Below, one piece after another: positions 2,253 through 18,149 of a DNA stretch of 64,000 bases. A program made the translations under genes and the position numbers. Source of the DNA: Kiritimatiellota bacterium. GTDB lineage: Bacteria > Verrucomicrobiota > Kiritimatiellia > JAAZAB01. Below the pieces are notes generated by a model. The model was given only the letters and a program-made list of their open reading frames with translations, did no database searches and was not told where the DNA came from. Within the stretch, counting starts at the first letter, position 1; each line of letters starts with the position of its first letter. The stretch lies in contig JAPLSY010000030.1 of NCBI GenBank assembly GCA_026398415.1, positions 21,306 to 85,305 on the forward strand. The letters are read 5' to 3'.

Positions 2253-2294
2253 AAATAACATTCCAACATTCTGCAGAATGTTGGAATGTTATTT
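2253..2294. repeat. Palindrome P1 (42-bp perfect inverted repeat built from 8-nt AACATTC(C/T) units)
   Basis: AAATAACATTCCAACATTCTGCAGAATGTTGGAATGTTATTT is self-complementary; contains the TAA stop of the Mrr-like gene. Confidence 0.95.
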
Positions 2295-2852
2295 CAGGAT
2301 TTTGAATGAGTCAAGCCATTGCTGGAGAATGGTCCGGTCAATGAGAATGCATTCGGTGCCACGCGCAAATTCACGGGCATCTTCTGTGAACTCGCTATTG
2401 GTAACTACCATGGCTTTGGTGCATTTGTAGTATTTCATTCCAGCCACAGCGTCGCTGATGGCTTTCCTTGTGATCTTATTCTTGGAGCGTTTGACCTGGA
2501 CCGCCATACGTTCCTTGTCCTTATTGATGATCAGGTCAACGCCATAGTCGTTAGAATCCCGCAGGTTGCCAACTTCATAGCCCTGTTGCGCCAGAAGACT
2601 GCCTACAAGTTTTTCAAAAGCCGCTCCGGACATAGCGTCCACGGCAGCCATGTCCGGCGCCGCATTGGAAGCGGCGGCATTCGTGGCGGTCTCTGCCAAG
2701 GCACAAGTTGTAATCCCAAGTGAAGCACCCCGCGGTGAGCCGCGGGGTATTTCTGCGGAATCCTGCGAAGCCATTTCTCCCTGAGGCAAAGCACAGAGTA
2801 TCCCGGCGAAGAAGGACGAAATAAGAATGGCAACGGCAACAATTCTGCTCAT
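2289..2852 (-). CDS. Mrr-like restriction endonuclease catalytic-domain protein with hydrophobic N-terminus
   Basis: FEKLVGSLLAQQGY...DYGVDLI...AVQVKR (PD-(D/E)xK-type D..QxK). Confidence 0.8.
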   Translation of the reverse strand: MSRIVAVAILISSFFAGILCALPQGEMASQDSAEIPRGSPRGASLGITTCALAETATNAAASNAAPDMAAVDAMSGAAFEKLVGSLLAQQGYEVGNLRDSNDYGVDLIINKDKERMAVQVKRSKNKITRKAISDAVAGMKYYKCTKAMVVTNSEFTEDAREFARGTECILIDRTILQQWLDSFKILK

Positions 2853-2906
2853 GACACCCCGCTTAAATATGCTGTTCCTGACCGGACTTAATGGGAGTTC
2901 CCCTTG

Positions 2907-3236
2907 TTACTTGCTTGATTCATCGACATGGAATATGTGGAGGATCCGGTGAATGAGCGGGGTGAAGAGCACTCCCGCTACCGTGATGAATACGACGCCG
3001 CTGAAGAGGGCATAAGCCGAGGCAAAGAGCTTGGCCGCCCTGCCATGCAGTTCGCCGACCGGTCCCATGCCCCCGAGGATCATGGAGGCGTTCAGCAATG
3101 AATCGATCAGACTAAAGCCGGCGATCCCAATGCCTAAGGCAAAGACGATCAGCAGGCCGGCGACTCCGGCAAAACCGGCTACCCGCCAGGCAAACTGCCG
3201 GGCAGGCAGTAGTCGCTCGTGTTTCTTCTCCAGCAT
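2907..3236 (-). CDS. Small membrane protein (potassium-channel-pore-like family)
   Basis: Two hydrophobic segments around DSLLNASMILGGMGP. Confidence 0.6.
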   Translation of the reverse strand: MLEKKHERLLPARQFAWRVAGFAGVAGLLIVFALGIGIAGFSLIDSLLNASMILGGMGPVGELHGRAAKLFASAYALFSGVVFITVAGVLFTPLIHRILHIFHVDESSK

Positions 3237-3263
3237 GCGTCACCTATTCCCTGATTGAATTCG

Positions 3264-4172
3264 TCATTTGTATTTGATGAAAGTCCCCTGTTTATATTCC
3301 TCAAAAGCGATTTGTAATTCTTCCTGGGTGTTCATCACTATGGGACCATACCAAGCGACGAGTTCACCAATGGGCTTGCCGGAAATCAGCAGGAATCTCA
3401 CGGCACGCGCCTCGGTAAAAACCCTTATCTCGTCACCGTCATCGAACATGACAATCGTCCCGTTGCCGACAAATGGATCGCGCTGAATATCGAAATAATT
3501 GCTCCCTTCCACTTCGTAAGTGAAGGGATTTTTATCCCTGCAAAAATAGCCCTGCCCGTCGATTATGTAAGCGAAGACCGTATGGCCCTGTATCGTGGGG
3601 TGTCTGAATTCTGAATTTGCAGGAACGGTAACGTCGATATACTCAGGATCGATTACAATACCCCGGACCGGACCTTTAATGCCGGCCACTTCACCGGCAA
3701 TGACCTTGATGGTCGTGCCATTGGATAGTTTGACTTCGGGTATTTGTTTGTTCGCTACGTCTCGATACCGCGGGTCCATCATTTTTTCCCGGGCCGGCAG
3801 ATTGGCCCAGAGCTGAAATCCGTACATTTTTCCGCTTGCATCGCCTTTAGGCATTTCCTGGTGGATGATCCCGCTTCCGGCGGTCATCCACTGTATATCC
3901 CCCGAGCGAATAATGCCTTTGTTTCCAAGACTATCGCCGTGTTCTACGTCTCCAGTCAGAACATAGGTGATCGTTTCGATCCCGCGATGAGGATGCCAGG
4001 GGAAACCTTGTATATAGTGGGCTGGATTGCCGGAGCGGAAATCATCAAGCAGCAGAAAAGGATCGAACATGGGCACTTCACTGAATCCAAAAGCCCTTTT
4101 CAGGTGAACGCCCGCACCTTCAATCGTTGGCTTGCTTTTAAGAACTTTCCGGATTTTCCGAATTGTAGGCAT
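3264..4172 (-). CDS. Pirin family protein
   Basis: DPFLLLD, FPWHPHRGIETITY, QWMTAGSGIIHQE, GPIVMNT motifs. Confidence 0.95.
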   Translation of the reverse strand: MPTIRKIRKVLKSKPTIEGAGVHLKRAFGFSEVPMFDPFLLLDDFRSGNPAHYIQGFPWHPHRGIETITYVLTGDVEHGDSLGNKGIIRSGDIQWMTAGSGIIHQEMPKGDASGKMYGFQLWANLPAREKMMDPRYRDVANKQIPEVKLSNGTTIKVIAGEVAGIKGPVRGIVIDPEYIDVTVPANSEFRHPTIQGHTVFAYIIDGQGYFCRDKNPFTYEVEGSNYFDIQRDPFVGNGTIVMFDDGDEIRVFTEARAVRFLLISGKPIGELVAWYGPIVMNTQEELQIAFEEYKQGTFIKYK

Positions 4173-4192
4173 AGCAATTTCTTTCCTTCAGC

Positions 4193-4223
4193 CCTCGAAA
4201 TAAAACTTAATATTATTTCAAGG
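4193..4223. promoter_or_regulatory. Imperfect inverted repeat upstream of pirin gene, possible operator
   Basis: CCTCGAAATAA-N9-TTATTTCAAGG (10/11 arm match). Confidence 0.35.
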
Positions 4224-4461
4224 ATTGCTAATCATTCAACCATGCCATCCGATGTCTGTTAAGTGTTGATTTGAGGGACCCTAAAACCTCCAACTAGCTT
4301 TAATATTTCTTGAGGAACGGGCATATTTTGACTTGAATGGCATTATAGAAGAAAACGAGGTGGAATCAATGCTTGGCTTGCTTGATTGCTCCCTACGCGG
4401 CGCGCCTCATTTTCCCGCCGCTTCCGAATATTCCGGTCCCTACCTTCCCCATTCCCAAAAT

Positions 4462-4495
4462 AACATTCTAACATTCTGCAGAATGTTAGAATGTT
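4462..4495. repeat. Palindrome P2 (34-bp perfect)
   Basis: AACATTCTAACATTCTGCAGAATGTTAGAATGTT; encodes the last codons and stop (ACA TTC TAA) of the ArsR-like gene. Confidence 0.95.
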
Positions 4496-4761
4496 CTCAT
4501 GAACTTCAGGAAGGATTTGCCGTAAGGCGAAAGGGAATGGGCCACCCGGCGGCCGCGGTATTGTTTATTCAAAAGGCCGGCCTGAACCAGCGCGCGCGTG
4601 TGTTGCGAAATGGTTTTAAAGTTGGCTCCCAGCGCGCCGGCAAGCTCTTCAACCGCAATGCCATTGTTTTTCTCAACGGCAAGCAAAATGGCAATGCGCC
4701 GATGATTGGCCGCCCCTTTAAAGTGCCGTTCCAGTTGTTTTGGCGTCTTCATTCGTTGCAA
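4486..4761 (-). CDS. ArsR-like winged helix-turn-helix protein (no cysteines)
   Basis: NHRRIAIL...VEELAGALGANFKTISQHTRALVQAGLL wHTH pattern, 91 aa. Confidence 0.8.
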   Translation of the reverse strand: MQRMKTPKQLERHFKGAANHRRIAILLAVEKNNGIAVEELAGALGANFKTISQHTRALVQAGLLNKQYRGRRVAHSLSPYGKSFLKFMRTF

Positions 4762-4775
4762 AAACGAGCATATTT

Positions 4776-4809
4776 AACATTCCAACATTCTGCAGAATGT
4801 TAGAATGTT
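4776..4809. repeat. Palindrome P3 (34 bp, one mismatched pair)
   Basis: AACATTCCAACATTCTGCAGAATGTTAGAATGTT, 15 bp upstream of the ArsR-like start. Confidence 0.95.
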
Positions 4810-4893
4810 GTCAAGAAGAATTCAACGACAGCGTTCAGCACTTTCCGGAAAATCACGGGGCGGAGTCACGCTCTAACCATTGCAAACATAGCT

Positions 4894-5505
4894 TCATTTC
4901 GCAATTTTCAGCAGCACACGCCGGCTTTTCGTCGATGCCACTTGCTTGCCCAACGCAACCGCCTGCTTGCGTATCCCCGGCTTGTGCTTGATGTCACCCG
5001 ATACGCCGGCATTGGAAACAAGGAGCGAAGCAAATTTCATGCCGGTATATTTGGCGGTCAAGGCAAACGGCTTGCTGAGGGCATCCAACCCCTCATCTTC
5101 AAAGGCGCTGGCTAGCAGAACGAGCGTCTTGCCTTTTAACGGGGTCGCCACGGTGCCGGCCTGATTGTCCCATTTGTAGAGCGAGAACATCCGGTCAAAG
5201 ACGAGCTTAAGCTGCGCGCTTGCTCCATAGAAATACAGGGGCGTGGCCATGACAATCACATCCACCTTGGCCATCCTGGCCAGGACCGGCTTGGCCTCGT
5301 CCTTAATCACGCAGGCGTACGCATCCAGTTTTTGGCAGGTCCGGCAGGCTGTGCATCCGGTGGATTTATACTTTAAGAAAGCCGTGCGCACGATCTCAAC
5401 CCGCGCGCCTTTTGAGCGCGCACCCGCGGCGAACCAATCCACGAGTGTCGCCGTGTTGCCGGCTTTCCTGGGACTTCCTGATAGTATTAAAATTTCTTTA
5501 GTCAT
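4894..5505 (-). CDS. Flavodoxin family / iron-sulfur flavoprotein (NADPH-dependent FMN reductase fold)
   Basis: GSPRKAGNT, CTACRTC...C, ATPLYF motifs. Confidence 0.85.
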   Translation of the reverse strand: MTKEILILSGSPRKAGNTATLVDWFAAGARSKGARVEIVRTAFLKYKSTGCTACRTCQKLDAYACVIKDEAKPVLARMAKVDVIVMATPLYFYGASAQLKLVFDRMFSLYKWDNQAGTVATPLKGKTLVLLASAFEDEGLDALSKPFALTAKYTGMKFASLLVSNAGVSGDIKHKPGIRKQAVALGKQVASTKSRRVLLKIAK

Positions 5506-5998
5506 AGGTTCCTAATTTTGATTTTGTCATCCTTTCAATCGAAACGAGAACGTCCTTATAAATCCGCTCCAGTTGATCCGCCAGCTCGGGCGCAAGTTCT
5601 TCGCCAAATTCGCCCGACCAGGCCACCTCGATGCCGATCAGGCTAACGCGCTCCGGCATGGGTATATGCATCGTACGCGCCAGGGCCAGCGCCTCCGGCA
5701 GGTTAATACTGTGCGCGGAAGCCCCTACCCGATACCGCTCCAAGTCGGTTTCAGTCAGCACCTTGACCGTGCCGGCCGGCACCGTTCCCGTCACCATGGC
5801 ATCCACGATCAGGACTTGCTGAAAGCCTTGCGTCTCGGATATGAAATCCAACGGCGATCCGGTGAACTCACGCACGACCACACGGGCGTCTGACTTGAAG
5901 AATTGTTCCAGGCGTCGCCCAAGCGCATATCCAATGCAGTCGTTTTTAACGATCGGATTGCCAAGATAACAGATCAGCGTCCTGCGACTTTTTTGCAT
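5498..5998 (-). CDS. Hydrogenase maturation protease
   Basis: LGNPIVKNDCIG, IVDAM, SAH motifs; directly downstream of large subunit. Confidence 0.9.
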   Translation of the reverse strand: MQKSRRTLICYLGNPIVKNDCIGYALGRRLEQFFKSDARVVVREFTGSPLDFISETQGFQQVLIVDAMVTGTVPAGTVKVLTETDLERYRVGASAHSINLPEALALARTMHIPMPERVSLIGIEVAWSGEFGEELAPELADQLERIYKDVLVSIERMTKSKLGTYD

Positions 5999-6055
5999 AT
6001 TTATATCCGGCGCCTGTCCTCCGGCTTGCCCCGCCAGCCTTCATGCGATATGGAT

Positions 6056-7558
6056 TTAGCTGCGGGTGATGTGGCGGATTTCGGCGCCGGTGTTGTCGCG
6101 AAGCACGATCTGCATGGGCATCTGCCCAATGGCCGCATGCGTGGCGCAGGAAAAGCAGGGGTCGTAGGCGCGGAACGCCATTTCCACCATGTTGAAAATG
6201 CCGTCGCTGACCATGCCGTTCTTGATCAGGGTCTTGGCCACGTTGCGCACATCCATATTCATGGCGCCATAATTCTGGGCGCTGGCCACCAACAGGTTAA
6301 GATCGGTCATCATGCCGTTGGCATCGGTCTTGTAGTGATGGAACAGCGTCCCGCGCGGCGCCTCCACGACCCCCACGCCTTCGCCCACCACTTGCTTGCT
6401 GATGGTGCGGTAGTTCCGGCTGAGGATTTCGTCATCCGCGGCCAGTTCCTGCAAGCGCTCGGCGGCGTACAGGGCTTCCACGGCACGCGCCAGGTGGTAG
6501 GTCAGCGAATGCTGCACGGGCTTAGGTCCGAACCGCTTCATAAAATGTTTGTAAGCCTGCTGGGCTTTTGGGGTCGCCATGCCGTTACAGACATTGAGCC
6601 GCGCGAGCGGCGCCACCCGATACATGCCGCTCGCTTTGCCATCCACCAATCCTTTCCAGCCCACCTGCCGCAAATACGGAAACTTTAAATAAGACCACGG
6701 CACCGGATGCTCGGCGATATAGGCAAGATAATCCTTACCCTCAAAATCCGCCACGTATTTTCCATCCGGATCCATGATTTTCAGGCGTCCGCCGTAAAAC
6801 GTGAAACGGCCGTCGGCATCCACCATGCCCATGTGATAGGAACGATGGTAATAGAGGTCTTTATTCAGGATAATCGCGACATATTCCGGATTGGCCATAA
6901 CGATCTTGTCGGCGGCCGCGATGGTAAACTCGCAGAAGTCCACCAGCTTGCCGGCCAATTCCTGGATGCGTTTGCGCTCCTCCCTGGTGACGGGATGCGA
7001 CACGCCGCCGGGCAGGCTGAACACCGGGTGCGTGGATTTTCCGCCGATGATGTCTTCGATTTCCACGGCATAGCTGCGATGTTTGATCACCTTGGTCCCG
7101 ATATCCAAACCCAACTCGGCAATGACCCCGAACACATTGCGCTTAAGCTGATCGGCTGCCGGGCCGACCACAAAATCCGGCGCCATGCCCAGCGCGTAAA
7201 TATGCTCCAGGTGACTTTCCAGCATGTGGGCGCAGTAGCCCAACTCCCGGATTTTATGCGCCGCCCGGGGCGGAGGCGCGGCAAACACCTGGTCCAGGGC
7301 CAGCGTGGAGGCCAGGTGATGCGGCCACGGGCATACCCCGCACAGCCGCGTAACGATGCGCGGAATTTCCTCGGCAGGCCGGCCTTTGCAAAACTCCTCG
7401 AACCCGCGCAGTTCCACCACCTGGAAATAGGTGTCTTCCACGTTGCCGTCGGCGTCCAGGAAAATGTCGATCTTGGCGTGACCCTCGAGGCGCGTGACCG
7501 GCTCGATGTGGATCGTCCGCGCCGTAGTTTTTTTCTTCTCATCCCAGATTTTCGGCAT
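6056..7558 (-). CDS. mvhA: [NiFe] hydrogenase large subunit, Mvh type (group 3c)
   Basis: EPVTRLEGH, L1 RLCGVC, GVVEAPRG, L2 RAYDPCFSCATH plus cleavable C-terminal tail; start trimmed to MPKIWD. Confidence 0.93.
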   Translation of the reverse strand: MPKIWDEKKKTTARTIHIEPVTRLEGHAKIDIFLDADGNVEDTYFQVVELRGFEEFCKGRPAEEIPRIVTRLCGVCPWPHHLASTLALDQVFAAPPPRAAHKIRELGYCAHMLESHLEHIYALGMAPDFVVGPAADQLKRNVFGVIAELGLDIGTKVIKHRSYAVEIEDIIGGKSTHPVFSLPGGVSHPVTREERKRIQELAGKLVDFCEFTIAAADKIVMANPEYVAIILNKDLYYHRSYHMGMVDADGRFTFYGGRLKIMDPDGKYVADFEGKDYLAYIAEHPVPWSYLKFPYLRQVGWKGLVDGKASGMYRVAPLARLNVCNGMATPKAQQAYKHFMKRFGPKPVQHSLTYHLARAVEALYAAERLQELAADDEILSRNYRTISKQVVGEGVGVVEAPRGTLFHHYKTDANGMMTDLNLLVASAQNYGAMNMDVRNVAKTLIKNGMVSDGIFNMVEMAFRAYDPCFSCATHAAIGQMPMQIVLRDNTGAEIRHITRS

Positions 7559-8576
7559 AACCTCTGGCCCCCTTTGGATTATCTTCCACCACACGACCGA
7601 GTTCGGACTTCGGCAGGGAATACCGGTAAAAGAATCCCAGCGGATCGAGAATCTGGCTCATCAGTTTTTCGATCTGCTCTTCGCTCATCTCGGCTTCATG
7701 GTCGGTCAGCCCGTATAGCGACGAAATGGCCGAAAGCATGGAGCCGCCCTGCTCGGTCACTGCTCCCGTTGGCCCCATGCAACCGCGGCAAGGCATGTTG
7801 ACCTTGGTACAGACGGCGTCGCATCCGGCGCGGGTCGCCGGACCAAGGCACAGCACCCCCTGCTCCAGAAAACATTTATCCGGATCGAAATCCAGTTCAT
7901 GCACCCTTGTAAAGCTGCCCACCGTGAGCTTTTCCGCCTTTTTCCGTTTGCACTCGTCACAGAGCGTCATTTCGGAGGCAATGACGGTGCCCTTGGGCGG
8001 CAGGGGCTTACCCTTTTCCACAAAATCCTTGACCATCTGCAGGATCTGCATGTTCATGACATGGGTCGGCGGGCAGGCCGGCACGAAATAATCCACGTCT
8101 ACCACGTCGTCCAAAGCTTTAACATCCTCGAAGAATTCAGGCAGGGTCAGTTTGTGCCCGGCAGCGTCCTGAAAATTTTCCTGCGGCTCGGCGCCGTCGG
8201 TGTTGACCGTGGAAACCGTATTTTTATAAACCTGATCGAAGATCTTGCGCTTGGTTGTAACGTTGGCCAGTCCGGGAATGCCCCCCATATGGGCGCAGGC
8301 CCCATAGGCGATCAGTATTTTGCACTTGGAGCGCATAATCCTGGCCAGTTCGGCGTTATCGGAATTGCGCACGGCCCCGTGATAGAAACCGATGGTAATG
8401 GACTGGTCCGGCATGGCGCGCAACTGGTCATACTTGACGTCCAGCAGGGTCGGCGCAAACACAATATCGGCCAGCGCCATGAGCGTCAGCAGGTCCTCGT
8501 TGAAATTGACCACGGCAATGTCGCAACCAACGCACGAAGCGCCGCGTTTCAGGGCAATCGTAATTTTTTCCGGCAT
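7539..8576 (-). CDS. mvhG: [NiFe] hydrogenase small subunit, Mvh type
   Basis: SCVGC, GACAHMGGIPG, PACPP, LCDEC, CFLEQGVLCLGPAT...C...CRGC. Confidence 0.92.
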   Translation of the reverse strand: MPEKITIALKRGASCVGCDIAVVNFNEDLLTLMALADIVFAPTLLDVKYDQLRAMPDQSITIGFYHGAVRNSDNAELARIMRSKCKILIAYGACAHMGGIPGLANVTTKRKIFDQVYKNTVSTVNTDGAEPQENFQDAAGHKLTLPEFFEDVKALDDVVDVDYFVPACPPTHVMNMQILQMVKDFVEKGKPLPPKGTVIASEMTLCDECKRKKAEKLTVGSFTRVHELDFDPDKCFLEQGVLCLGPATRAGCDAVCTKVNMPCRGCMGPTGAVTEQGGSMLSAISSLYGLTDHEAEMSEEQIEKLMSQILDPLGFFYRYSLPKSELGRVVEDNPKGARGYAENLG

Positions 8577-8588
8577 GGCTTAGTACCA

Positions 8589-8623
8589 GTTATTAGTGAT
8601 CAGTGATCAGTAATTAGTGATTT
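8589..8623 (+). repeat. In-phase heptamer array, GTGATCA family (5 units)
   Basis: GTTATTA GTGATCA GTGATCA GTAATTA GTGATTT. Confidence 0.8.
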
Positions 8624-9109: not shown

Positions 9110-9122
9110 AGCCCACAATACC

Positions 9123-9164
9123 ATTTCTGATTTATGATTTCGGATTGCTGATTGCTGATTTCTC
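9123..9164 (+). repeat. In-phase heptamer array, ATT(T/G)CTG family (6 units)
   Basis: ATTTCTG ATTTATG ATTTCGG ATTGCTG ATTGCTG ATTTCTC, between hdrA and mvhD. Confidence 0.8.
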
Positions 9165-9170
9165 GCCGCT

Positions 9171-12100
9171 TTACGCTCCACTTTCTTCCAGCGCCGCATC
9201 GATCATCGCCATAATCTGGCTGGTCTTATAGCCTTTCTGCTCCATGGCGCCGCTCGGGCAGGTCGCCGCACAACAGCCGCATCCTTTGCACAAGGCCTCG
9301 GTAACCTTGACCCGCTTTTTCTTCTGCCCGTTGCGCTCGACTTCGACGATCTCCAGGGCGCCATAATCGCAGACCGGCACGCACAGGCCGCAACCATCGC
9401 ACAAATCTTCGTTCACGGCCACAATGATCGGCTCGGATTCATATTCTTTCCGTGAAATAATCGTGCCGACCCGCGCCGCCGCCGCCTGGGCCTGGGCAAT
9501 GGTTTCCTCGATCGCCTTGGGCGCGTGGGCCATGCCGGCCATGAAGACGCCCTCGGTGGCGAAATCCACCGGGCGCAGTTTGACGTGCGCCTCGAGCAGG
9601 AACTTCTCGGCATTCAACGGCACCTTGAACAATTTTCCCAGTTCGGCGTTATCGGGGTTGGCATCCACCCGCGCGCTTAAGACCAGCAAATCCGCGCCGA
9701 TATTCAGAACCGACCCGGTCAATTCATCCGGAACGGTCACATTGATTTTCCGGCCGGCGGCGGCCAGCGCCGGTTTATGTTCAACCTCGAACCGCACAAA
9801 TTGCACGCCGAGATCGCGCGCCCGGGTGTAATATTCCTCACGCAAGCCATAGGTGCGGATATCGCGATAGAGGATATAGACCTGGCAGCGCGGATTCAAC
9901 TGCTTGAGGCGGATGGCATTTTTGATGGCGGTGCTGCAGCAAACCCGGCTGCAATACATATGGTCGCTCTCGCGCGACCCGACGCACTGGATCATGACCA
10001 CGTTATCGGGAACCTTGAACGCCGAGCTGCGCATTTGTTTTTCCAGGTCCAACTGCGTAAGGACCCGTTCTGATTTTCCATAGCCGTACTCAATCGGCTT
10101 GCTTTCCTGCGCGCCCGTGGCCAGCACAACGGCCCCGTGTTTCAAGGTTTTCTTGGTGTTTTTTCCGATCTGCAGCACGGTTTCGAAATTGCCGACAAAT
10201 CCGGCGGCCTGTTTTACGGACGCGTTCAGGAACAAGGCAATGCGCGGATGGTGCCGCACGCGCGCCGCAAGCGACGCGGCCAAATCCGCCGGCGCCCGGC
10301 CGTCGAGGGTACGATCCAGCTTTAACAGATTGCCCCCCAGTATTTTTTCCTTTTCAACCAGGAAAACGTCAAAGCCCTGGTCGGCGATGTCCAGGGCCGC
10401 CGTCATGCCGGCCAGCCCGCCGCCGATCACGAGCGCTTTCGCGGTCACCGGTTGCGGCTGGGAATGCAAAGCCTCCGCCAAGTTCACCTTGGCCACCGCC
10501 ATGCGCACGAGGTCGCAGGCTTTCGCGGTGGCGGCGGCGGGATGGTCCATATGGATCCAGGAACACTGGTCGCGGATATTGGCCATTTCGAAGAGGTAAG
10601 GATTGAGCCCGATTTCCTTCAAGGTCGCCTGGAACAGCGGCTCGTGCGTGCGCGGCGAGCAGGAGGCCACCACCAGCCGGTTCAGCTTGTGCTCCCCAAT
10701 TAACTGGCTGATGTGATTTTGAGACTCCTGCGAACAGGCATAGAGGCTGGTCTCGGTATATACCACGTTCGGCAGGGACTTGGCATATTCCGCCACGCGC
10801 GCAACGTCCACCACGCCGGCAATATTGATTCCGCAGTGGCAGATAAGCACGCCCACCCGCGGCGTCTCCTGCTCCACGGCGCGCTCCGGCGGAAATTGTT
10901 TAATCCTGGTCTGGGTGCCGCGCGCGCGAGCGAGTTCCCGGCCGGCCTCGCTGGCGGCTGCGCTGGCCTGCACCACGGTTTCCGGAATATCCCGGGGACC
11001 GGACGCCACGCCAGCGACAAAAACGCCGGGCCGGGAAGTGCGCAAAGGCGCCAGGGAATCGGTCCAGACAAATCCGAAATCGTTCAAGTTCACACCCAGC
11101 CGCCCCGCCAGGCCCCGCAGGCTGGCGGAGGGTTCCAGACCGGTCGCCAGGACCACCATGTCGAACGCAGCTTCGGCCGTACCGCCGCCGGCCGGCGCAT
11201 ATTTGACCATTAACTGCTTTGTCTGCTGATCCTGCTCCACGCCATGAACCCGCGCGCGTTCGAAAACCACGCGGCTTTCGCTGCGCGCATGCTCGTAATA
11301 CTTGTCGAAATCCTTGCCGTGCGCGCGCACATCCATGAAGAAAATCGTGGCATCCACCTGCTTGAGATGCTCCCTGGCGATCACGGCTTCCTTGATGGCA
11401 TACATGCAGCAGACGGACGAGCAATAGCCGTTGCGGCAGGCCACGTCCCGTGACCCCACGCATTGCAGGAAAGCAATCCGCTTGGGCTCGCGGCCGTCGG
11501 AAGGACAGCGCACATGCCCGGCAAACGGACCGGATGCGCATAAAATGCGCTCGAATTCCATGCTGGTCACAACATCCGGGAACCGGCTGTAGCCGTATTC
11601 GTGTTTGGGATACGGCTGGAACTGATCGTAACCCGGGGCCAGAATAACGGCGCCGATCTCGATTTGCTCGATGCGATCCTTGTCGTCATAACAAATGGCG
11701 CCGGCCTGGCAGGCCTTCTGGCACAAGCCGCAGGTCCCCTTGGTCAGCTTCAGGCACATGGCCGCGTCAATGGCCGGCGCATTGGGCAGGGCCTGGGCGT
11801 AAGGGCGCGCAATGGCGCTCTTTGCGCGCAATTGCCACTCGAATGCAGAGAGCGTTTTCTTGGGCACTTCCTCGTCGGGATGGGCAGGATGCCGGACATA
11901 GCGCCGGGGACATTTTTCCAGGCAGACCCCGCAGCCCGTGCAGCGCTCGAGATCGATATAGCGGGCGCGTCGCCGGATGGTGGCCGTGAACCGACCGCTC
12001 TCCCCCTGCAAGTCCAGCACGTCGGCCATGGTCATCAGGGTCACATTGAGATGACGTCCGCACTCGACCAGCTTCGGCGATAGAATACAGAGCGAGCAGT

Positions 12101-12281
12101 CGTTGGTGGGAAACGTCTTGTCCAGCATGGCCATGTTGCCGCCAATGGCCGGACTGGATTCGACCAGATAGACCTTGAACCCGGCGTTGGCCAGGTCCAG
12201 TGAGGCTTGAATCCCGCCTACGCCGCCGCCCACCACCAGGACCGCGCCCACGGGCTTCGATTTTTTTTGCGGTGCAATCAT
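9171..12281 (-). CDS. hdrA: Large heterodisulfide reductase subunit A-like flavoprotein (two FAD modules, multiple 4Fe-4S)
   Basis: GGGVGGIQA and GGGLAGMTA FAD motifs, KTFPTNDC, two QCVGSR...CSxVCC motifs, ferredoxin CxxCxxCxxxCP motifs. Confidence 0.92.
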   Translation of the reverse strand: MIAPQKKSKPVGAVLVVGGGVGGIQASLDLANAGFKVYLVESSPAIGGNMAMLDKTFPTNDCSLCILSPKLVECGRHLNVTLMTMADVLDLQGESGRFTATIRRRARYIDLERCTGCGVCLEKCPRRYVRHPAHPDEEVPKKTLSAFEWQLRAKSAIARPYAQALPNAPAIDAAMCLKLTKGTCGLCQKACQAGAICYDDKDRIEQIEIGAVILAPGYDQFQPYPKHEYGYSRFPDVVTSMEFERILCASGPFAGHVRCPSDGREPKRIAFLQCVGSRDVACRNGYCSSVCCMYAIKEAVIAREHLKQVDATIFFMDVRAHGKDFDKYYEHARSESRVVFERARVHGVEQDQQTKQLMVKYAPAGGGTAEAAFDMVVLATGLEPSASLRGLAGRLGVNLNDFGFVWTDSLAPLRTSRPGVFVAGVASGPRDIPETVVQASAAASEAGRELARARGTQTRIKQFPPERAVEQETPRVGVLICHCGINIAGVVDVARVAEYAKSLPNVVYTETSLYACSQESQNHISQLIGEHKLNRLVVASCSPRTHEPLFQATLKEIGLNPYLFEMANIRDQCSWIHMDHPAAATAKACDLVRMAVAKVNLAEALHSQPQPVTAKALVIGGGLAGMTAALDIADQGFDVFLVEKEKILGGNLLKLDRTLDGRAPADLAASLAARVRHHPRIALFLNASVKQAAGFVGNFETVLQIGKNTKKTLKHGAVVLATGAQESKPIEYGYGKSERVLTQLDLEKQMRSSAFKVPDNVVMIQCVGSRESDHMYCSRVCCSTAIKNAIRLKQLNPRCQVYILYRDIRTYGLREEYYTRARDLGVQFVRFEVEHKPALAAAGRKINVTVPDELTGSVLNIGADLLVLSARVDANPDNAELGKLFKVPLNAEKFLLEAHVKLRPVDFATEGVFMAGMAHAPKAIEETIAQAQAAAARVGTIISRKEYESEPIIVAVNEDLCDGCGLCVPVCDYGALEIVEVERNGQKKKRVKVTEALCKGCGCCAATCPSGAMEQKGYKTSQIMAMIDAALEESGA

Positions 12282-12301
12282 AAGAAAATCGTTTTAAGAA
12301 C

Positions 12302-12350
12302 GTTCTTGGTTCTTCGTTTTTCGTTCTTCGTTAATCCGGAACGAAGAATC
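12302..12350 (+). repeat. Heptamer array GTTCTTC family (5 units) with short inverted arm
   Basis: GTTCTTG GTTCTTC GTTTTTC GTTCTTC GTTAATC followed by GAACGAAGAA; fills the hdrC-hdrA gap. Confidence 0.75.
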
Positions 12351-12359
12351 GGAAACTCT

Positions 12360-12821
12360 TTAATTCGCATTCACTTCCTCAAAGCGCTTCTTTTGGGCCG
12401 CATAGGCCGCTTTATCAGTCACCAGTTTGTTGATCAGGTTTTGTTGTATTTTAACCGCGAGCGAATTCACTTCCTTTACGTCCTTAAGCCGGTCGGCATC
12501 CACATGGCCTTCCTTGACGGCCATGGCGCGCAAAGCCTGAATGATGTCCCGGAACTTGACATTCTGAGGGCAGGTGGCATAGCAGGCGTAACACTGGATA
12601 CAGCGCCAGATCAAGGGCGATTTCAACACCTGCTGGCGCATGCCCAAAAGCACCTGGCGAATGATTTTGCGCGGATTGAATTCCTCGTCAATCCCCGCCA
12701 CCGGACAGGCCGCCGTGCATGTGCCGCAGGCATAACACAGCTTGATATTCTCGCCGCCGGGATAGGCCGCGACATCAAACTTGAACTTCGGGTCCAGATC
12801 CTTACATAAGATCGTTTCCAT
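12360..12821 (-). CDS. hdrC: Heterodisulfide reductase subunit C-like 2x[4Fe-4S] protein
   Basis: CYACGTCTAACP, FNPRKIIR, IWRCIQCYACYATCPQNV; start trimmed to METILC after AAGAGG. Confidence 0.85.
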   Translation of the reverse strand: METILCKDLDPKFKFDVAAYPGGENIKLCYACGTCTAACPVAGIDEEFNPRKIIRQVLLGMRQQVLKSPLIWRCIQCYACYATCPQNVKFRDIIQALRAMAVKEGHVDADRLKDVKEVNSLAVKIQQNLINKLVTDKAAYAAQKKRFEEVNAN

Positions 12822-12877
12822 AATTACCTCTTTCTTCAACGCATGCCCTGCTCCGCTTTCAGCGGGCCCGTCCTCTG

Positions 12878-13837
12878 TCATACCAACGGAACCGGCCTGG
12901 GCGTCAGCCCGGCCTTTTGCACGATCTCCGCCACCTTGCTTTCCCACTCAATTGCCATGAGGTGAATACCGGCCACGCCCTCGATCTGGCGCAAGGCCTG
13001 AATCTGTTCGGCACAAATAGCGATGCCCTCCGTCTTGGGCTCCTTGGATCGTTCCATCCGCTCGATATAGCTATCGGGCAATTTGATCCCGGCGACATTG
13101 TCGCGCATGTGTTTGGCCATGCCCAGGGTTCTGAGCGGGGTCAGTCCGGCCAGGATCTTGCAGCGCTTGTGCAGACCGCGGGCGCGCACAAGCTCCATCC
13201 AGCGCTGAAACCGATCCATGTCGTAAATGCATTGGGTCTGGATGAAATCCGCGCCGGCTTCCACTTTTTTCTCGAGGCGCGTGACCCGGAACTCGAACGG
13301 ATCGGCGAACGGGTTGGCGGCGGCGCCGATAAACATGCGCGGCTCATGGAGCGCGGCCTTGGCACTGGCTTTAATCTCATCCCCGCAGGCAAATATTTTT
13401 TTATCCCGCATATCCCGCACCATCCGGATCAACTGAATGGAGTCCAGGTCGAATACGTGCCGGGCCGTCGGGTGGTTGCCAAAACACTGGTGATCGCCGG
13501 TCAGGCATACCAGGTTGCGGATGCCCAGCAGGTAGGCGCCCAGAATATCGGCCTGCATGGCCAGCCGGTTGCGGTCGCGACAGGTCATCTGCATGATCGG
13601 CTCCAGCCCCAGATCCAACGCCAATTTGGAAGCGCACAGGCTGGATACCCGGACAATGGCCGTCTGGTTATCCGTGATATTGACGGCATCCACCCAGCCC
13701 CGCAGGTGATCGGCCTTGGTCTTGATGATTTCCGGGTCGGCGCTCTTAGGCGGTCCCAGCTCGGCGGTGACGATAAATTCCCCCGCCGCCATCAGTTTTT
13801 CCAGATTGCTTCCGGATTTATAGGTTGTTTCGGACAT
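12878..13837 (-). CDS. metF: Methylenetetrahydrofolate reductase, FAD subunit
   Basis: VTAELGPPK, NITDNQ, QMTCRDRNRLAMQ, LTGDH, GADFIQTQ. Confidence 0.93.
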   Translation of the reverse strand: MSETTYKSGSNLEKLMAAGEFIVTAELGPPKSADPEIIKTKADHLRGWVDAVNITDNQTAIVRVSSLCASKLALDLGLEPIMQMTCRDRNRLAMQADILGAYLLGIRNLVCLTGDHQCFGNHPTARHVFDLDSIQLIRMVRDMRDKKIFACGDEIKASAKAALHEPRMFIGAAANPFADPFEFRVTRLEKKVEAGADFIQTQCIYDMDRFQRWMELVRARGLHKRCKILAGLTPLRTLGMAKHMRDNVAGIKLPDSYIERMERSKEPKTEGIAICAEQIQALRQIEGVAGIHLMAIEWESKVAEIVQKAGLTPRPVPLV

Positions 13838-13857
13838 AATGCGTTCTTGGTTATTTA

Positions 13858-14520
13858 TCAACTATCCTGCGCAACATCTTCCCGCGTCAGCCGGCGCGGC
13901 CCGCCACAGTGGGTCTTTGACCAATCCCGCGGCGCCGCCACGGCCGTCAACGCATCCAGCTTGCCGAGGGCTTTCAGCCGGTCATGAATCAATTGCCAGC
14001 CGCACTCGATATTATCGGGGTCCACCTCGCACCTGCCGTCTTCGGACCCGCCGCAAGGGCCGTTGGAAAGCGACTTGGCGCAGCGGGTCACCGGGCAAAC
14101 CCCGCCGAACACGCCGAGCTGACAATCGCCACAGGCCAGGCAGTTTTCCGCCCATTTGCCGGCGGCTTCGTTCGTGCCCATGAATTTTGTATTCAGCGCC
14201 GGATACACCGGCTTGTCGCCGAAAAGCCGCGCCGCCAGCTGGACCCCCACCCCACAGGCCAGCGAAAGAATGGCGTCACAGGCGGTCGCCACTTCGCGCA
14301 CGGACTCGAAAAACTCGGCATCGCACTGGCGCTCGATGGTCTGCTCCACCGCCTCAAGCTTTCCGCCCAGGCGCAAGACCGACGTCAGGGTGGCCACTTC
14401 ACGTTCGCCGCCGGCCAGGCAGACCGTGACACAAGTTCCACAGCCCAGCACCAGCACCTTCCGGTGGCCCTGGAGCAATCCCATGATTTCATCCATTGGT
14501 TTTTGTTCGGCAATAATCAT
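13858..14520 (-). CDS. metV: Methylenetetrahydrofolate reductase small Fe-S/Zn subunit
   Basis: GCGTCVTVC, ERQCD, ACGVG, CLACGDC, CPVTRCAKSLSNGPCGGS..GRCE, CGW. Confidence 0.92.
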   Translation of the reverse strand: MIIAEQKPMDEIMGLLQGHRKVLVLGCGTCVTVCLAGGEREVATLTSVLRLGGKLEAVEQTIERQCDAEFFESVREVATACDAILSLACGVGVQLAARLFGDKPVYPALNTKFMGTNEAAGKWAENCLACGDCQLGVFGGVCPVTRCAKSLSNGPCGGSEDGRCEVDPDNIECGWQLIHDRLKALGKLDALTAVAAPRDWSKTHCGGPRRLTREDVAQDS

Positions 14521-14526
14521 GACGCA

Positions 14527-16581
14527 TCATTCCTTCACAAACTGCAGGAACCGGCCGGATTCGAACTCGGTCAGGTGGCCTATTCTTAGCCGCGCCCCGT
14601 CAATACCGGCCTTGGTCAACATCGCGCGCAAACGCGCCACCCGCTTGGCGCCATGATCGGCGCCAACCAGATAGCGGCAATTTTCACGATGGCATCCCAG
14701 GAGCGTAACGTTTTTGGCGCCCCGTTCGAGCGCCTGCAGAACCTGACGGGCATCTACTTTTCCCAGGCAGGGCACACGAATCAAACGCACCGCGGAACTG
14801 TATTCCGCCCGGTTGACACCGGCCAGCGTGGCGGCCGGCCAGGCGGAATGCTCGCAGGCGAACACCGTCATATCCGGTTCCACGCCGATATCAGCCCGCA
14901 TCTGCTCGTCGGTAAAACGCGGCATCTGGATCGCAACCGCCGGACACATTGTGGTGCATAATCCACAGCGCCGGCAGGCCGGCGCCGAAACGGCCGCGGT
15001 TTTGTTGGCCGCATCCACACGGATGGCGCCATGCGGACACGTGCGCAGGCACGTCAGGCACAAAACGCACCGATCGGGGTCTACCGTGGCCGCATCCTGG
15101 GGCATGGTCACGCGCCCGGAGGCGAGCAAGGCCTGAATCGCGGCAGCGGTCGCGGCGGCATCGTTCAGCGCCTCGCGGAACTCGCTGTTGCCGCGCGCCA
15201 AGCCAACCACAAACAGACCCGGTCGATTGGCAAGCACCGGGGTCAGCCAGACATTATCCGCCTGCGCCGCGCCGCCGGGCCCGCGCCGGATCAGATTTCC
15301 CGGCGCAGACAATCCATCGCCGGGACACAAGCGCGCATCCGCCATGATCGCGCATTCCACGGATTCCGTCACAACGGCCCCCGACTGAATATCCTGGTAT
15401 TCAATGTCAACTTGATTCCCGGCAGCATTGATTTTCGGCTTGGTTTTATACCGCATGATCAGGACACCGGCTTCCCGCGCCCGGCGATATAGCGCTTCCA
15501 AGCCCCAGGCCGCAACGCGGATATGCCGCGCAAAGAGCAGGACTCGGCACCGCCGGCTGCGGGCCAACCGTTCGGCGGCGGTCAGCGCCAGGGCATTGAT
15601 GATCCGTCCCTGCTCCGCGGCAAGGTCGAGAAAAATCGCCACCGATTTCGGGAAGGATTGGGCGTGCAACCGCTCAGCCAATCCGGCCAAATTCATCACC
15701 GCGCTCTTACCAGTCAGATGCTCCGGGAATGGGAACGACTCGAGTTCGCCGCAGGCCAGCGCCACCGCGCCCGCCGTTATATTCCGCGCTTGCTCCCCGG
15801 TCGTGAATGCGGCAACAAAGCGGCCGACATCCCCGCTCAACGATCGCAAGGCGGCGTTGCCGATAAAGGTAATGGCCGGATCATGGCGAACCGCTTCCAT
15901 CGTGGCGGCCATGACCTGCCGCACCGCTTGCGCGGTTTCGGCGTCCCGGTTCTCCGACTTGTCGGACGAGTCCGAGAGGCCGGTGTCATCCAGGTAACCG
16001 AAGAAATCGATCATCCGGGCGGCGCTCCCGCCCAAGTCCGGTCTGCGGCTGGCCAGCGTAACCTTGTGTCCCATGCGCGCCAGGCACAGTGCCGTTTGCA
16101 TCGCCACCAGGTCGCCGCCCAGGATAAGAACGTCGCGATTCATGGGTTCGCGTTTGGAGGCAATCGGCTCCAACAGGACGGCGCGTTCCACGGCCGCGTT
16201 AATTAACGCATTCGCCTTACGGGTGGCCGCGGCAGGATCGGCGTGTACCCAGGCGCACTGCTCGCGGATATTGAGGAACGTTGCGAGGCCATCGCCGATA
16301 CGAACACGCTTAAGCGCCGGATTCAACGCCGGGTCGAAAATTTCGCGCTCACAGGCCGCCAGCACAAGGCGACGGCAGCCCTTGGCGGCAACGGCCTTGA
16401 CCGCCTGAAGGCATCCCTTGGCATTGCACAAGCGCGATGTCACCTGCACGGCGGCCACGCCTTCCCGCGCGGCAGCAGCCTTGGCCAGCGCCTGAAAATC
16501 CAGGCGCTTGGCGAGGGTCCCGGCACAATCGCACAGGATCACGCCGACACCGTTTTTGTCTTTTTTAACAGATGGGCTCAT
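14527..16581 (-). CDS. HdrA-like (degenerate FAD module) / ferredoxin / MvhD fusion protein (QmoB-like architecture)
   Basis: N-terminal LCDC...LC...AC...NIREQCAWVH; CVLCLTCLRTCP and CRRCGLCTTMCP; C-terminal MvhD-like FACEHS, PCLGK, GCHRENCRY. Confidence 0.85.
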   Translation of the reverse strand: MSPSVKKDKNGVGVILCDCAGTLAKRLDFQALAKAAAAREGVAAVQVTSRLCNAKGCLQAVKAVAAKGCRRLVLAACEREIFDPALNPALKRVRIGDGLATFLNIREQCAWVHADPAAATRKANALINAAVERAVLLEPIASKREPMNRDVLILGGDLVAMQTALCLARMGHKVTLASRRPDLGGSAARMIDFFGYLDDTGLSDSSDKSENRDAETAQAVRQVMAATMEAVRHDPAITFIGNAALRSLSGDVGRFVAAFTTGEQARNITAGAVALACGELESFPFPEHLTGKSAVMNLAGLAERLHAQSFPKSVAIFLDLAAEQGRIINALALTAAERLARSRRCRVLLFARHIRVAAWGLEALYRRAREAGVLIMRYKTKPKINAAGNQVDIEYQDIQSGAVVTESVECAIMADARLCPGDGLSAPGNLIRRGPGGAAQADNVWLTPVLANRPGLFVVGLARGNSEFREALNDAAATAAAIQALLASGRVTMPQDAATVDPDRCVLCLTCLRTCPHGAIRVDAANKTAAVSAPACRRCGLCTTMCPAVAIQMPRFTDEQMRADIGVEPDMTVFACEHSAWPAATLAGVNRAEYSSAVRLIRVPCLGKVDARQVLQALERGAKNVTLLGCHRENCRYLVGADHGAKRVARLRAMLTKAGIDGARLRIGHLTEFESGRFLQFVKE

Positions 16582-16587
16582 GAAAAA

Positions 16588-17862
16588 TTATGCCTGTTTC
16601 AAAATCTCGGCGCACACGGCTTCCGCCTGGCCGATGGTTGCGGCGATGTCCTGCGGGTTGCCGCAGGTTCCGGCGACAAATATGTTTCGGCAATGCGTCT
16701 GCGGCAAGCCCGCCGTACCCTTGATCCCCAGAAAACCCTCTTGATCCACGGCCAGCCGCAGGCAATCAGCCAGCGCGCGCGCCGCCGGCGCGGGGCGGAT
16801 GCCGATGGAAAGAATGACCAGGTCAAACTCCGCCTTATTGACGGCGCCTTTCTCCTGATCTTCATATGCAATGACAACCGCACCCTCCGAACCGGCAACA
16901 ATCTCCACCGGCCGCGCGCGCACAAAGGTCATCGTTTTCTGGCAGGCTGCAAAAAAAGATTCGAAGTCTTTGCCGAAATTCTGGATGTCCATGTAAAAGA
17001 CCGTGACGCTCGTATCCGGTGCGTCATGCTGAATGCGCCGAGCCATGCGCAGGGCGTAAGCGCAGCAGACCGTCGAACAATAGTTGGTGTCTTCCGGCCG
17101 GCGATGGGCGTGTTCGCTGCGCGACCCGACGCACTGGATAAACGCCACGCGGCGGGGCGCGCTTCCGTCGGACAAGCGCGTGATGCGGTGCTGGCCGGCC
17201 AATTGATGCTCGGCATCCAACCCGGAGATGACATTGGGAATCACGCCGTAACCGAAAGTTCCCATCGGCCCGGGATGGAAGGGCTCATGGCCCGTAGCCA
17301 CCACAACGGCATCCACGTCCAGTTCCCGGTTTTGGGTCGGCTCTTTCCAATCGATCGCCTGGACCGGGCAGGCCTTGGCACACCGATCACAGGCCTTGTC
17401 ACGGGTGCGGCGGCAAAGCGGCAAATCCAGCACCGGCACGCCGCCATGCAAGGCCGGGTATTTGACGGAAATGCAATGCTCAGGACAAACAGCCACGCAA
17501 AGACCGCAGCCGATGCATCGCTCGCGGCGGATAATGTTCGGTTCCGTTCGCAGGGTAACACGATAGGCGGCGCCATTATTTCCCGGCACCAGCGCCACCA
17601 GTTTGGAACGGGTATTGAGCCGCACACGCGGAGCGTGGAGCGCGGCCTTGAGCCGATCGGTGGCCACGCAAACGTGACACCGCAAACAGACATCGGCGGC
17701 TTTACAGCCCATGGCCGCCGCCTGGCCGCCAATTACCGGCTCCTTTTCAACCCACTGCACGTCGAGACCAGCGCGTCCCAGGCGTTCCGCCACCGTCGCA
17801 CCGGCAATGCCTCCGCCGAGAACCAGCACGCACCGAATGGGTTTGTTGGATTTCGTTGTCAT
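16588..17862 (-). CDS. Short HdrA-like FAD/Fe-S protein (QmoA-like architecture)
   Basis: GGGIAG, VEKE..IGG, CIGCGLCVAVCP, QCVGSR...YCSTVCC. Confidence 0.85.
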   Translation of the reverse strand: MTTKSNKPIRCVLVLGGGIAGATVAERLGRAGLDVQWVEKEPVIGGQAAAMGCKAADVCLRCHVCVATDRLKAALHAPRVRLNTRSKLVALVPGNNGAAYRVTLRTEPNIIRRERCIGCGLCVAVCPEHCISVKYPALHGGVPVLDLPLCRRTRDKACDRCAKACPVQAIDWKEPTQNRELDVDAVVVATGHEPFHPGPMGTFGYGVIPNVISGLDAEHQLAGQHRITRLSDGSAPRRVAFIQCVGSRSEHAHRRPEDTNYCSTVCCAYALRMARRIQHDAPDTSVTVFYMDIQNFGKDFESFFAACQKTMTFVRARPVEIVAGSEGAVVIAYEDQEKGAVNKAEFDLVILSIGIRPAPAARALADCLRLAVDQEGFLGIKGTAGLPQTHCRNIFVAGTCGNPQDIAATIGQAEAVCAEILKQA

Positions 17863-17896
17863 GACGCTTGACGATCCTCAGCCGTGAACAGTATTA

Positions 17897-18003
17897 AATG
17901 TGCCAGATTATTGGCCAGCCAATCTTGCATATTCCTGCAATTATTTAGTATATTACTGCATTACCTGGCCAATGAATGACGAGTTTTCAAAGAGAATCAG
18001 GTC
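17897..18003 (+). promoter_or_regulatory. Diverged inverted copy of the araC/metF2 intergenic region including a remnant of the araC 5' end; upstream of the hdr-met-mvh operon
   Basis: Aligns with the reverse complement of 19360-19457; remnant reads MNDEFSKRI from ATG 17972 versus MNEDFSKRI in the intact regulator; ATTCCTGC-N13-ATTACTGC repeat. Confidence 0.8.
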
Positions 18004-18065
18004 CAACGGGGCCATAGCCGCTGGCTATGCCTCCCACGTCACTACGCTTGCGTTCCGCCTTCCGA

Positions 18066-18103
18066 ACAACATTCTAACATTCTGCAGAATGTTGGAATGT
18101 TGT
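18066..18103. repeat. Palindrome P4 (38 bp, one mismatched pair)
   Basis: ACAACATTCTAACATTCTGCAGAATGTTGGAATGTTGT. Confidence 0.95.
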
Positions 18104-18149
18104 CGGCATTCGGATGCCATTGGTGAAAGAGAAATGCATAATCCCATTC

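Follow-up and report, generated by a model that had tools for sequence, protein, structure and literature searches.

A 64,000-nucleotide stretch of DNA from a Kiritimatiellota bacterium (hereafter the window) carries four copies of one perfect palindrome, and the question raised by this locus is whether these copies are operators or whether they mark sites at which gene modules recombine. Both possibilities had been put forward in an earlier sequence-only reading of the window, either as a multi-site operator for one protein or as an element that resembles repetitive extragenic palindromes (REP sequences). The window corresponds to C34:21306-85305 of an assembly of 3.29 Mb in 88 contigs with 56% G+C (genome G000). 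The analysis presented here makes it moderately likely that the palindromes are members of a repeat family of low copy number, capable of insertion, and that this family and a small winged helix-turn-helix (wHTH) DNA-binding protein are cognate partners, in a pairing similar to the partnership of REP sequences with REP-associated tyrosine transposases (RAYT), but with a non-catalytic partner. All comparisons rest on fragmented metagenome-assembled genomes (MAGs).

The palindrome family in the window and in the host genome

The four palindromes, named P1 to P4 along the window (Table 1), were borne out by direct reading. They are perfect and 34-42 bp long, and each arm consists of two tandem 8-nt AACATTCY units around a CTGCAG centre, as had been described from the sequence. 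The sole variable position of the 34-nt core is the Y at position 8 together with its partner R at position 27, and P1 and P4 carry symmetric extensions beyond the core. The 18-nt inner core AACATTCTGCAGAATGTT matched the window exactly four times (starts 2265, 4470, 4784 and 18076), a search allowing up to two mismatches added no further copy, and no match was obtained in 100 shuffles of the window. Conservation across copies extends over the 34-nt core and about 2 nt on each side, as judged from the flank profile.

All genes from position 1 to 19454 lie on the minus strand, and two of them end within a palindrome, in agreement with the sequence-only reading: the TAA of the Mrr-type open reading frame (ORF) 2289-2852 is located at 2289-2291 within P1, and that of ORF 4486-4752 at 4486-4488 within P2. 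From the sequence, the C/G variant of the palindrome is open in all three reading frames, and the T/A variant contains TAA in one frame, which is the frame used for the stop of the wHTH gene.

In the host genome ten copies were found, identical apart from Y/R, and no degenerate copies were detected genome-wide at up to three mismatches of the core. A count of ten copies and not hundreds excludes an ordinary high-copy REP. Four of the ten fall within one 16-kb span, for which our own arithmetic gives a chance of about 0.003. Two of the six copies outside the window lie between convergent genes, one is located upstream of hypF and one in frame inside prmC. The other two (C1:16151-16360) are 176 bp apart without a credible ORF between them, which gives the appearance of a cassette that was emptied or of insertion in tandem, and the sequence flanking them on the right is similar to that on the right of P2 and P3 ([GC]TCA[GA]GAAGA). 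A link to PstI-type restriction via the CTGCAG centre was considered and dropped, because this hexamer is not depleted genome-wide (883 occurrences compared with about 980 expected from base composition, by our own arithmetic).

A winged-helix protein and its predicted pairing with the palindrome

P3, the gene at 4486-4752 and P2 follow each other as palindrome-wHTH gene-palindrome, and this arrangement would represent the home unit of the family. The encoded 88-residue protein matches Pfam HTH_5 (PF01022, E = 3e-6), and its matches to ArsR proteins in the PDB reach E = 1e-4. Its AlphaFold model (predicted local distance difference test score, pLDDT, 93) is a winged helix of the MarR/ArsR type, for which Foldseek returned MarR/ArsR folds with template modelling (TM) scores of 0.7-0.86. 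A metal or thiol sensing site was not found: the window protein has no Cys, and conserved Cys or His ligands were absent from the alpha3N and alpha5 positions of the alignment. Homologues form more than 1000 clusters at 90% identity, all of about 88 residues and all unnamed, and they mostly sit on contigs of about 1 kb.

Copies that are spaced 290-455 bp apart always flank an 88-residue homologue (46-93% identity), be it in Kiritimatiellia, in bacteria of the candidate phyla radiation (CPR) or in a Pacearchaeota MAG, and the stop codon of the bracketed homologue always lies within the downstream copy. Of the 18 palindrome-bearing genomes in the Kiritimatiellia family of the window, 9 encode the protein, and it is missing from all 43 relatives in which the palindrome is lacking or is represented only by a lone match with two mismatches. 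Homologues that keep the canonical palindrome (type 1) have a nearly invariant recognition helix. Paralogues with 33-35% identity differ in their recognition helix, and the palindrome on either side of them differs too, being TTCTCTAATTCG-CT-CGAATTAGAGAA (type 2); again the stop codon is located inside the downstream palindrome. Type 2 coexists with type 1 and occurs in 4-8 copies per genome, including solo ones. Moreover, nearly all homologues from randomly drawn Patescibacteria are flanked by variant palindromes, which share the geometry ATTC-N4-ATTC-N4-GAAT-N4-GAAT and differ in their N4 spacers and centre. This co-variation of protein and site across paralogues is the strongest available evidence that the wHTH protein binds the palindrome, and the two are predicted to form a cognate pair. 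On one Saccharibacteria contig (L101, 6391-7880) a type-2 unit stands beside a type-1 unit, thus orthogonal pairs can cluster.

In the mechanism that we propose, wHTH dimers would bind the duplex palindrome via its four GAAT/ATTC boxes, which are 8 bp apart, probably with two dimers per copy. Binding at the upstream, promoter-overlapping copy would result in autorepression, and the same protein may occupy solo copies elsewhere in the genome. In a promoter scan, the -35 element of the best sigma70-like promoter of the region abuts P3 and its -10 element lies at the P3 centre; the TTGAC flank of this promoter is conserved among the palindrome-wHTH units of Kiritimatiellia. The proposed operator for one protein was in this respect borne out, as a candidate cognate protein exists, its gene is located between P2 and P3, and P3 overlaps its best promoter. 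It did not hold for the remaining copies, which are not a promoter-linked regulon according to the tallies of flanking genes and orientations given below.

The autoregulated non-metal ArsR/SmtB repressors of the HlyU, NolR and SdpR type, which have inverted-repeat operators, share with this protein the wHTH fold and the small dimeric size, and the palindrome here likewise lies over a predicted promoter of the protein's own gene. By its fold and location the protein would be an autorepressor of the ArsR/MarR type that has no sensor site. In contrast to those repressors, the 34-bp four-box palindrome stands on both sides of the gene, the stop codon is written into the site, and the other copies are inserted and not promoter-linked.

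Insertion of solo copies between and within genes

Solo copies arise by insertion between genes, with a preference for convergent pairs, and in frame within genes, and are then kept almost invariant. Among 94 solo copies, 31 lie between convergent, 13 between divergent and 50 between tandem genes, compared with a baseline from the same loci of 16-17% convergent, 16% divergent and 68% tandem; the share of convergent contexts is double that of the baseline, with no enrichment of divergent ones.

Insertion within genes can be followed in prmC. In seven of the ten species of the genus, PrmC carries an in-frame insert of 51-63 nt that contains the palindrome, whereas three congeners, as well as other genera, lack an insert at this site. 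The palindrome of this insert is perfect or nearly so in six species and decayed in congener G004. In these six species, variation within the palindrome is limited to 1 of its 34 columns, compared with 92 of 263 adjacent prmC columns (p = 4e-5). A second in-frame copy was found in a gene of congener G006, and the orthologue in G000 lacks it. Sixteen ORFs of CPR genomes, 196-701 aa in length, hold the palindrome in frame, always reading ...HSNILQNVGM..., and seven of the host genes were verified by Pfam (TsaD twice, FAD-linked oxidase twice, phosphoglycerate kinase, MiaA and a GT4 glycosyltransferase). Both copies in the FAD-linked oxidase are at the same position, and those in TsaD are at two different positions, indicating independent insertion events.

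Coding-compatible palindromic miniature inverted-repeat transposable elements (MITEs) have been exemplified in Coxiella (PMC5896051) and are akin to the Rickettsia palindromic elements (RPE). Like the copies described here, these elements are inserted in frame in housekeeping genes, where they are tolerated as extra surface peptides, and no transposase is linked to them. The marks of RPE and coding MITEs, namely in-frame insertion in coding genes and empty sites in relatives, were both found. However, RPE-type elements are 100-150 bp long, whereas the copies here measure 34-42 bp, corresponding to about 13 aa, are accompanied by a DNA-binding protein gene of their own and reside in CPR, Kiritimatiellia and DPANN hosts. 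MITEs proper are marked by a target-site duplication and by a parent insertion sequence with matching inverted repeats; membership in them failed, as neither a target-site duplication nor a transposase that recurs at the loci listed was found.

Palindromes as junctions of rearrangement and cassette exchange

That the palindromes mark recombination boundaries of gene modules is supported by filled and empty sites, by synteny breaks and by the gain and loss of cassettes. Among congeners, the copies were found to coincide with synteny breakpoints, which had been suggested as a check in the sequence-only reading.

The neighbours of the wHTH unit differ among four congeners, though its proteins are 83-93% identical. 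In G000 it is located between the hydrogenase operon with its FMN reductase gene and the pirin gene, and in G004 between C18-like genes followed by an FMN reductase gene and an Eco57I/MmeI-type gene. G003 has a solo palindrome between the same C18-like genes with FMN reductase gene and an Eco57I-type gene, so that one locus holds a solo palindrome in G003 versus palindrome-wHTH-palindrome in G004; the wHTH unit of G003 lies elsewhere, between pirin-Mrr and another gene. In G006 the unit is found within the C18-like region, a place without a palindrome in G000. The gene order of the P1-P2 segment also differs in G003 (pirin-Mrr-palindrome). The two sides of P4 match different contigs in G003, G005 and G009, and in G009 each side continues past this point without a palindrome.

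At many loci, arrays of one-gene, palindrome-bounded segments stand next to the wHTH gene. The cargo of these segments is mostly of the accessory or defence type: Mrr in the window, and YhcG nucleases, a DUF559/MTES endonuclease, Fic/Doc-MazE, RhuM-Fic, PIF1-WYL and MliC elsewhere. AbiEii and type-IIG restriction-modification genes adjoin such segments. Their identity and symmetry let the copies function as junctions for recombination. Taken together, these comparisons show that the wHTH gene and neighbouring accessory genes behave as cassettes that are gained, lost and re-ordered at the palindromes, and that P1, P2, P3 and P4 delimit three cassette-like segments in the window.

Site-specific recombination of the pdif or integron kind was considered as the cause of these rearrangements. 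In this case the palindrome, with its two arms and a centre of 4-8 bp, would be the substrate of a host tyrosine recombinase of the Xer type, the wHTH protein would serve as an accessory factor or set the directionality, and genes would be mobilised in the form of cassettes. This would account for the solo palindrome and the complete unit at one locus of G003 and G004, for the arrays of single-gene segments with accessory or defence cargo beside the wHTH gene, and for the relocation of the unit among congeners. Integron attC and Acinetobacter pdif sites are indeed similar in that genes or small gene sets are bounded by short, recombination-prone palindromic sites, that the cargo is of the accessory or defence type, and that a cassette is present or absent at one locus. 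However, attC sites, which go with a linked IntI integrase and have R''/R' core sites and extrahelical bases, are asymmetric and conserved in structure, whereas the sites here are conserved in sequence, perfectly symmetric and without a linked integrase. No GTTRRRY cores were found in the palindromes, and no recombinase recurred within 4 kb of the 118 loci among the matches listed. Furthermore, perfect symmetry leaves the site without orientation, and new copies inside coding loops are not explained. Xer/dif-like sites have two 11-bp XerC/XerD arms around a centre of 6-8 bp, at which Xer recombines them. The arm sequence ATGTTA is similar to the XerD arm of dif, a weak lead, and this resemblance is limited to 6 nt. 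Such recombination is, in our view, quite unlikely to explain the family.

Gene context of solo copies

The 374 site-flanking proteins fell into 247 clusters, of which the wHTH protein alone recurs, and the 69 genes with a start facing a copy match 70 Pfam families, none of them in more than two genes. A conserved regulon was ruled out on these grounds. Two of the start-facing genes in the Pfam tally are of the Eco57I/MmeI type, one being the 1080-aa ORF of G004.

A classical regulon, in which the palindromes are operators of one signal-responsive repressor of the ArsR type that controls the adjacent pirin, Hdr/hydrogenase, beta-propeller and hypF genes, is nevertheless suggested by several features. 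P3 overlaps the promoter of the regulator gene, and P1, P2, P4 and the copy on contig C16 stand 140-290 nt upstream of gene starts. In addition, the arm with R = A reads TGTTAGAAT in sequence, an outward extended -10 element, and a bound protein could gate transcription from it. However, no regulon is conserved within or across lineages, and P4 is missing upstream of the same operon in congeners. The excess of convergent contexts and the lack of divergent enrichment also speak against operators, as do the in-frame copies inside housekeeping genes and the wHTH protein without Cys or an obvious sensor site. One CPR genome with a 608-kb contig holds only two copies, both around the wHTH gene. A promoter toggle by the A/G base (TGTTAGAAT versus TGTTGGAAT) showed no significant link to a facing gene start (p = 0.09-0.45). 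We therefore regard a regulon of this kind as unlikely.

A possible hairpin form of the palindrome

Of 188 copies, 170 are symmetric at the variable position (GG 108, AA 62, mixed 17), and symmetric extension of the flanks by at least 4 nt, specific to the individual copy, was observed in 20 of 152 copies compared with 3.5 expected. A single strand of the palindrome folds at dG -18 kcal/mol (z = -11). The arm covariation and the copy-specific symmetric flanks suggest that a hairpin, cruciform or fold-back form matters. These features might also be explained by inheritance from symmetric master copies, by selection for longer stems, or by insertion into pre-existing hairpins such as terminators.

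An element acting at the RNA level, with the hairpin as a bidirectional terminator or mRNA stabiliser and an incidental link to the wHTH gene, would fit the strong DNA hairpin, the enrichment between convergent genes and the A/T runs that flank a few copies (C49, C23). Against it, no consistent T-tract was seen in the flank profile, the terminator scan does not flag the copies, and in-frame copies would terminate their essential host genes. No Rfam family was matched; the search returned only sub-threshold generic hairpin matches to miRNA models. The cross-phylum sequence identity and the cognate paralogue pairs would also be left unexplained, and we consider a role of this kind very unlikely. 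The narrower case of an intrinsic terminator was ruled out by the missing T-run after the stem and the negative scan at the copies. Readings as a replication terminator (RTP/Ter) or a parS-like site, prompted by a winged helix with few sites, were set aside, as the MAG is fragmented, RTP-like folds are not among the top fold matches and in-gene insertion and cassette behaviour fit a repeat element better.

Distribution of the pair

Of the 33 genomes in the Kiritimatiellia family to which the window belongs, 18 contain the palindrome, with 1-10 copies each. An exact 28-nt scan of species-representative genomes returned at least 118 stretches. Among the matches listed, most are from Patescibacteria (Saccharibacteria and many Parcubacteria groups), in addition to Kiritimatiellia/Verrucomicrobiota, one Pacearchaeota MAG and one MAG labelled Gammaproteobacteria. 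Besides the seed, the canonical 28-mer was present in 1 of 400 evenly drawn Patescibacteria, and close wHTH homologues in about 7 of 120 sampled ones, often as 2-4 paralogues. The Kiritimatiellia wHTH proteins nest within Parcubacteria diversity in a tree of 88 columns that has no resolved branches. This patchiness, with wHTH identities of up to 84% across phyla, argues for horizontal spread and against an ancient universal regulator. As judged from these sequence comparisons, the pair has a patchy occurrence in Patescibacteria, in a single family of Kiritimatiellia and in at least one DPANN MAG, and has probably spread by horizontal transfer. With respect to a carrier, no palindrome was found in IMG/VR, and the phage and plasmid collections gave a protein match only to an unrelated ArsR.

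Two of the hosts are of interest in themselves. The MAG labelled Gammaproteobacteria (CAZVCF01; L074, L099, L108) has 1.2 Mb with 13 type-1 and 8 type-2 palindromes, a size and content that suggest a mislabelled CPR-like or symbiont genome. In the Pacearchaeota MAG (DPANN; L119, 3638-7757), a wHTH gene (65% identity) and the canonical palindrome are located beside a 1211-aa ORF, which belongs to a four-member cluster of flanking proteins; this occurrence reflects either cross-domain transfer or a binning artefact.

Features of the window around the copies

The positions of the palindromes and of the features next to them are given in Table 1. P4 stands about 200 nt upstream of the 13-kb HdrA/MvhD/MetFV/NiFe-hydrogenase/FMN-reductase operon, a Wood-Ljungdahl-type electron-bifurcating module in a Kiritimatiellia MAG. 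A sequence of about 100 nt upstream of this operon recurs inverted at the 5' end and upstream region of the AraC/PocR gene with 77% identity, an arrangement that is also seen beside the AraC orthologue in G009, G005 and G007, and the two copies may represent a common regulatory region for the PocR-type regulator. The 5' part of the 187-aa Mrr-type ORF contains a further stretch of about 100 nt that is repeated in multiple copies (74-89% identity); many contigs of G000 and of its congeners carry it, with the largest number in G009. This stretch could represent either a repeat family of its own or a leader that is shared. Because the Mrr_cat domain begins only at residue 72, the true start of the Mrr gene may lie downstream.

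Table 1. Palindromes and neighbouring features of the window
Feature	Position	Strand	Description
P1	2253-2294		C/G variant; 34-nt core 2257-2290; extension AAAT/ATTT; stop of Mrr-type gene inside; 163 nt upstream of beta-propeller gene start
P1-P2 segment	2289-4172	-	Mrr_cat nuclease 2289-2852, orf109 2907-3236, pirin 3264-4172
Multi-copy repeat	2718-2829		5' part of Mrr-type ORF
P2	4462-4495		T/A variant; 34-nt core 4462-4495; outer unit gives last wHTH-gene codons ACA TTC TAA; 290 nt upstream of pirin
Winged-helix (wHTH) gene	4486-4752	-	88 aa, Cys-free, ArsR/MarR-type; recognition helix residues 45-57 (NFKTISQHTRALV)
P3	4776-4809		34-nt core 4776-4809; 23 nt upstream of wHTH-gene ATG; putative auto-operator
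Sigma70-like promoter	4787-4814	-	TTGACA-16-CAGAAT, 10/12; best of region; reads into wHTH gene
P3-P4 segment	4894-17862	-	13 kb; operon of FMN reductase, HycI, NiFe hydrogenase, MvhD, HdrA-like, MetF/MetV, HdrA-like
Repeat upstream of Hdr operon	17897-18003		recurs inverted at 19360-19457
P4	18066-18103		T...G mixed variant; 34-nt core 18068-18101; extension AC/GT; junction of Hdr operon and AraC/PocR gene
Inverted copy of repeat	19360-19457		5' end and upstream region of AraC/PocR gene

Discussion

The preferred reading, a low-copy repeat family that inserts between and within genes and is paired with a wHTH protein, has to be weighed against a number of observations. A RAYT/IS200 or tyrosine-recombinase partner, which the sequence-only reading had suggested looking for, was not found near the copies. 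Y1_Tnp (PF01797) is absent from 9 of 17 palindrome-bearing genomes and never adjacent to copies, and no recurrent recombinase or other protein was detected within 4 kb of the 118 loci among the matches listed. Target-site duplications were not found, and direct repeats in the flanks were at null level. Mobility is suggested by comparisons of filled and empty sites in variable protein loops, where exact junctions are unreadable. The rearrangements at the palindromes could be plain homologous recombination at any repeat, and the arm covariation could be inherited from symmetric master copies. With some copies standing upstream of genes (P2 and pirin, P4 and the Hdr operon, the hypF copy), a regulatory role of a subset is possible. 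The link between protein and site is predicted from layout, co-occurrence and co-variation, and nine palindrome-bearing genomes of the family show no wHTH gene. As many copies lie at contig ends, these apparent absences may be assembly losses; alternatively, the copies could persist in those genomes without the protein.

The absence of a transposase also bears on the comparison with a known system of matching layout. REP/REPIN-RAYT systems (Bertels and Rainey; Di Nocera et al., PMC3733652) likewise combine short palindromic repeats with a single-copy gene bracketed by its own repeat, and several orthogonal repeat-gene pairs occur per genome, with copies mostly at gene ends and long-term persistence. 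The partner in those systems is a Y1 HUH transposase, whereas here it is a non-catalytic 88-residue winged-helix protein. REP sequences occur in tens to hundreds of copies and have a GTAG/CGTC tag, whereas 1-13 copies of a perfect palindrome without such a tag in its sequence were found here; unlike REP, these copies are often in frame inside genes and are patchy across phyla. That they are ordinary REPs mobilised by an IS200-like Y1 transposase would agree with the single-copy gene flanked by its repeats, with orthogonal repeat families within one genome and with the enrichment at gene 3' ends. Membership in that family is refuted, however, by the nature of the flanked gene, by the distribution of Y1_Tnp and by ten copies without the tag, which leaves this explanation extremely improbable.

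In the literature searched, no description of the motif was found, nor of such repeats in Patescibacteria, and the pairing of a palindromic repeat with a cognate winged-helix protein in CPR and Kiritimatiellia is apparently undescribed. The window presents one instance, in an unusual host lineage, of an apparently undescribed class of cognate winged-helix-plus-palindromic-repeat systems, and the role as junctions is especially clear in it.

A bolder form of this reading can be put forward only tentatively. The pair might be a transposase-less replicator-host partnership, in which the 34-bp palindrome copies itself via hairpin or fold-back DNA and the sole dedicated gene encodes the protein that recognises it, either for copying or for keeping the copies harmless. 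Such pairs would have diversified into many orthogonal specificities, crossed phyla and domains (CPR, Kiritimatiellia and DPANN), and come to provide junctions for the exchange of accessory and defence cassettes.

The genomes of CPR/Patescibacteria and DPANN archaea are tiny, and regulators as well as recognised mobile elements are few in them. In practical terms, short-read assemblies are broken by the perfect palindromes, which is seen here in the many copies at contig ends and in the homologues, most of which are on contigs of about 1 kb. In their diversity, the protein-site pairs constitute a natural set of orthogonal DNA-binding modules. If the reading is true, it would extend the REP-RAYT idea of a long-lived partnership between repeat and gene to a partner without a catalytic domain, and, with a repeat that can reside within essential genes and act as a cassette junction, it would provide a new handle on how CPR and DPANN genomes rearrange and exchange accessory and defence genes.

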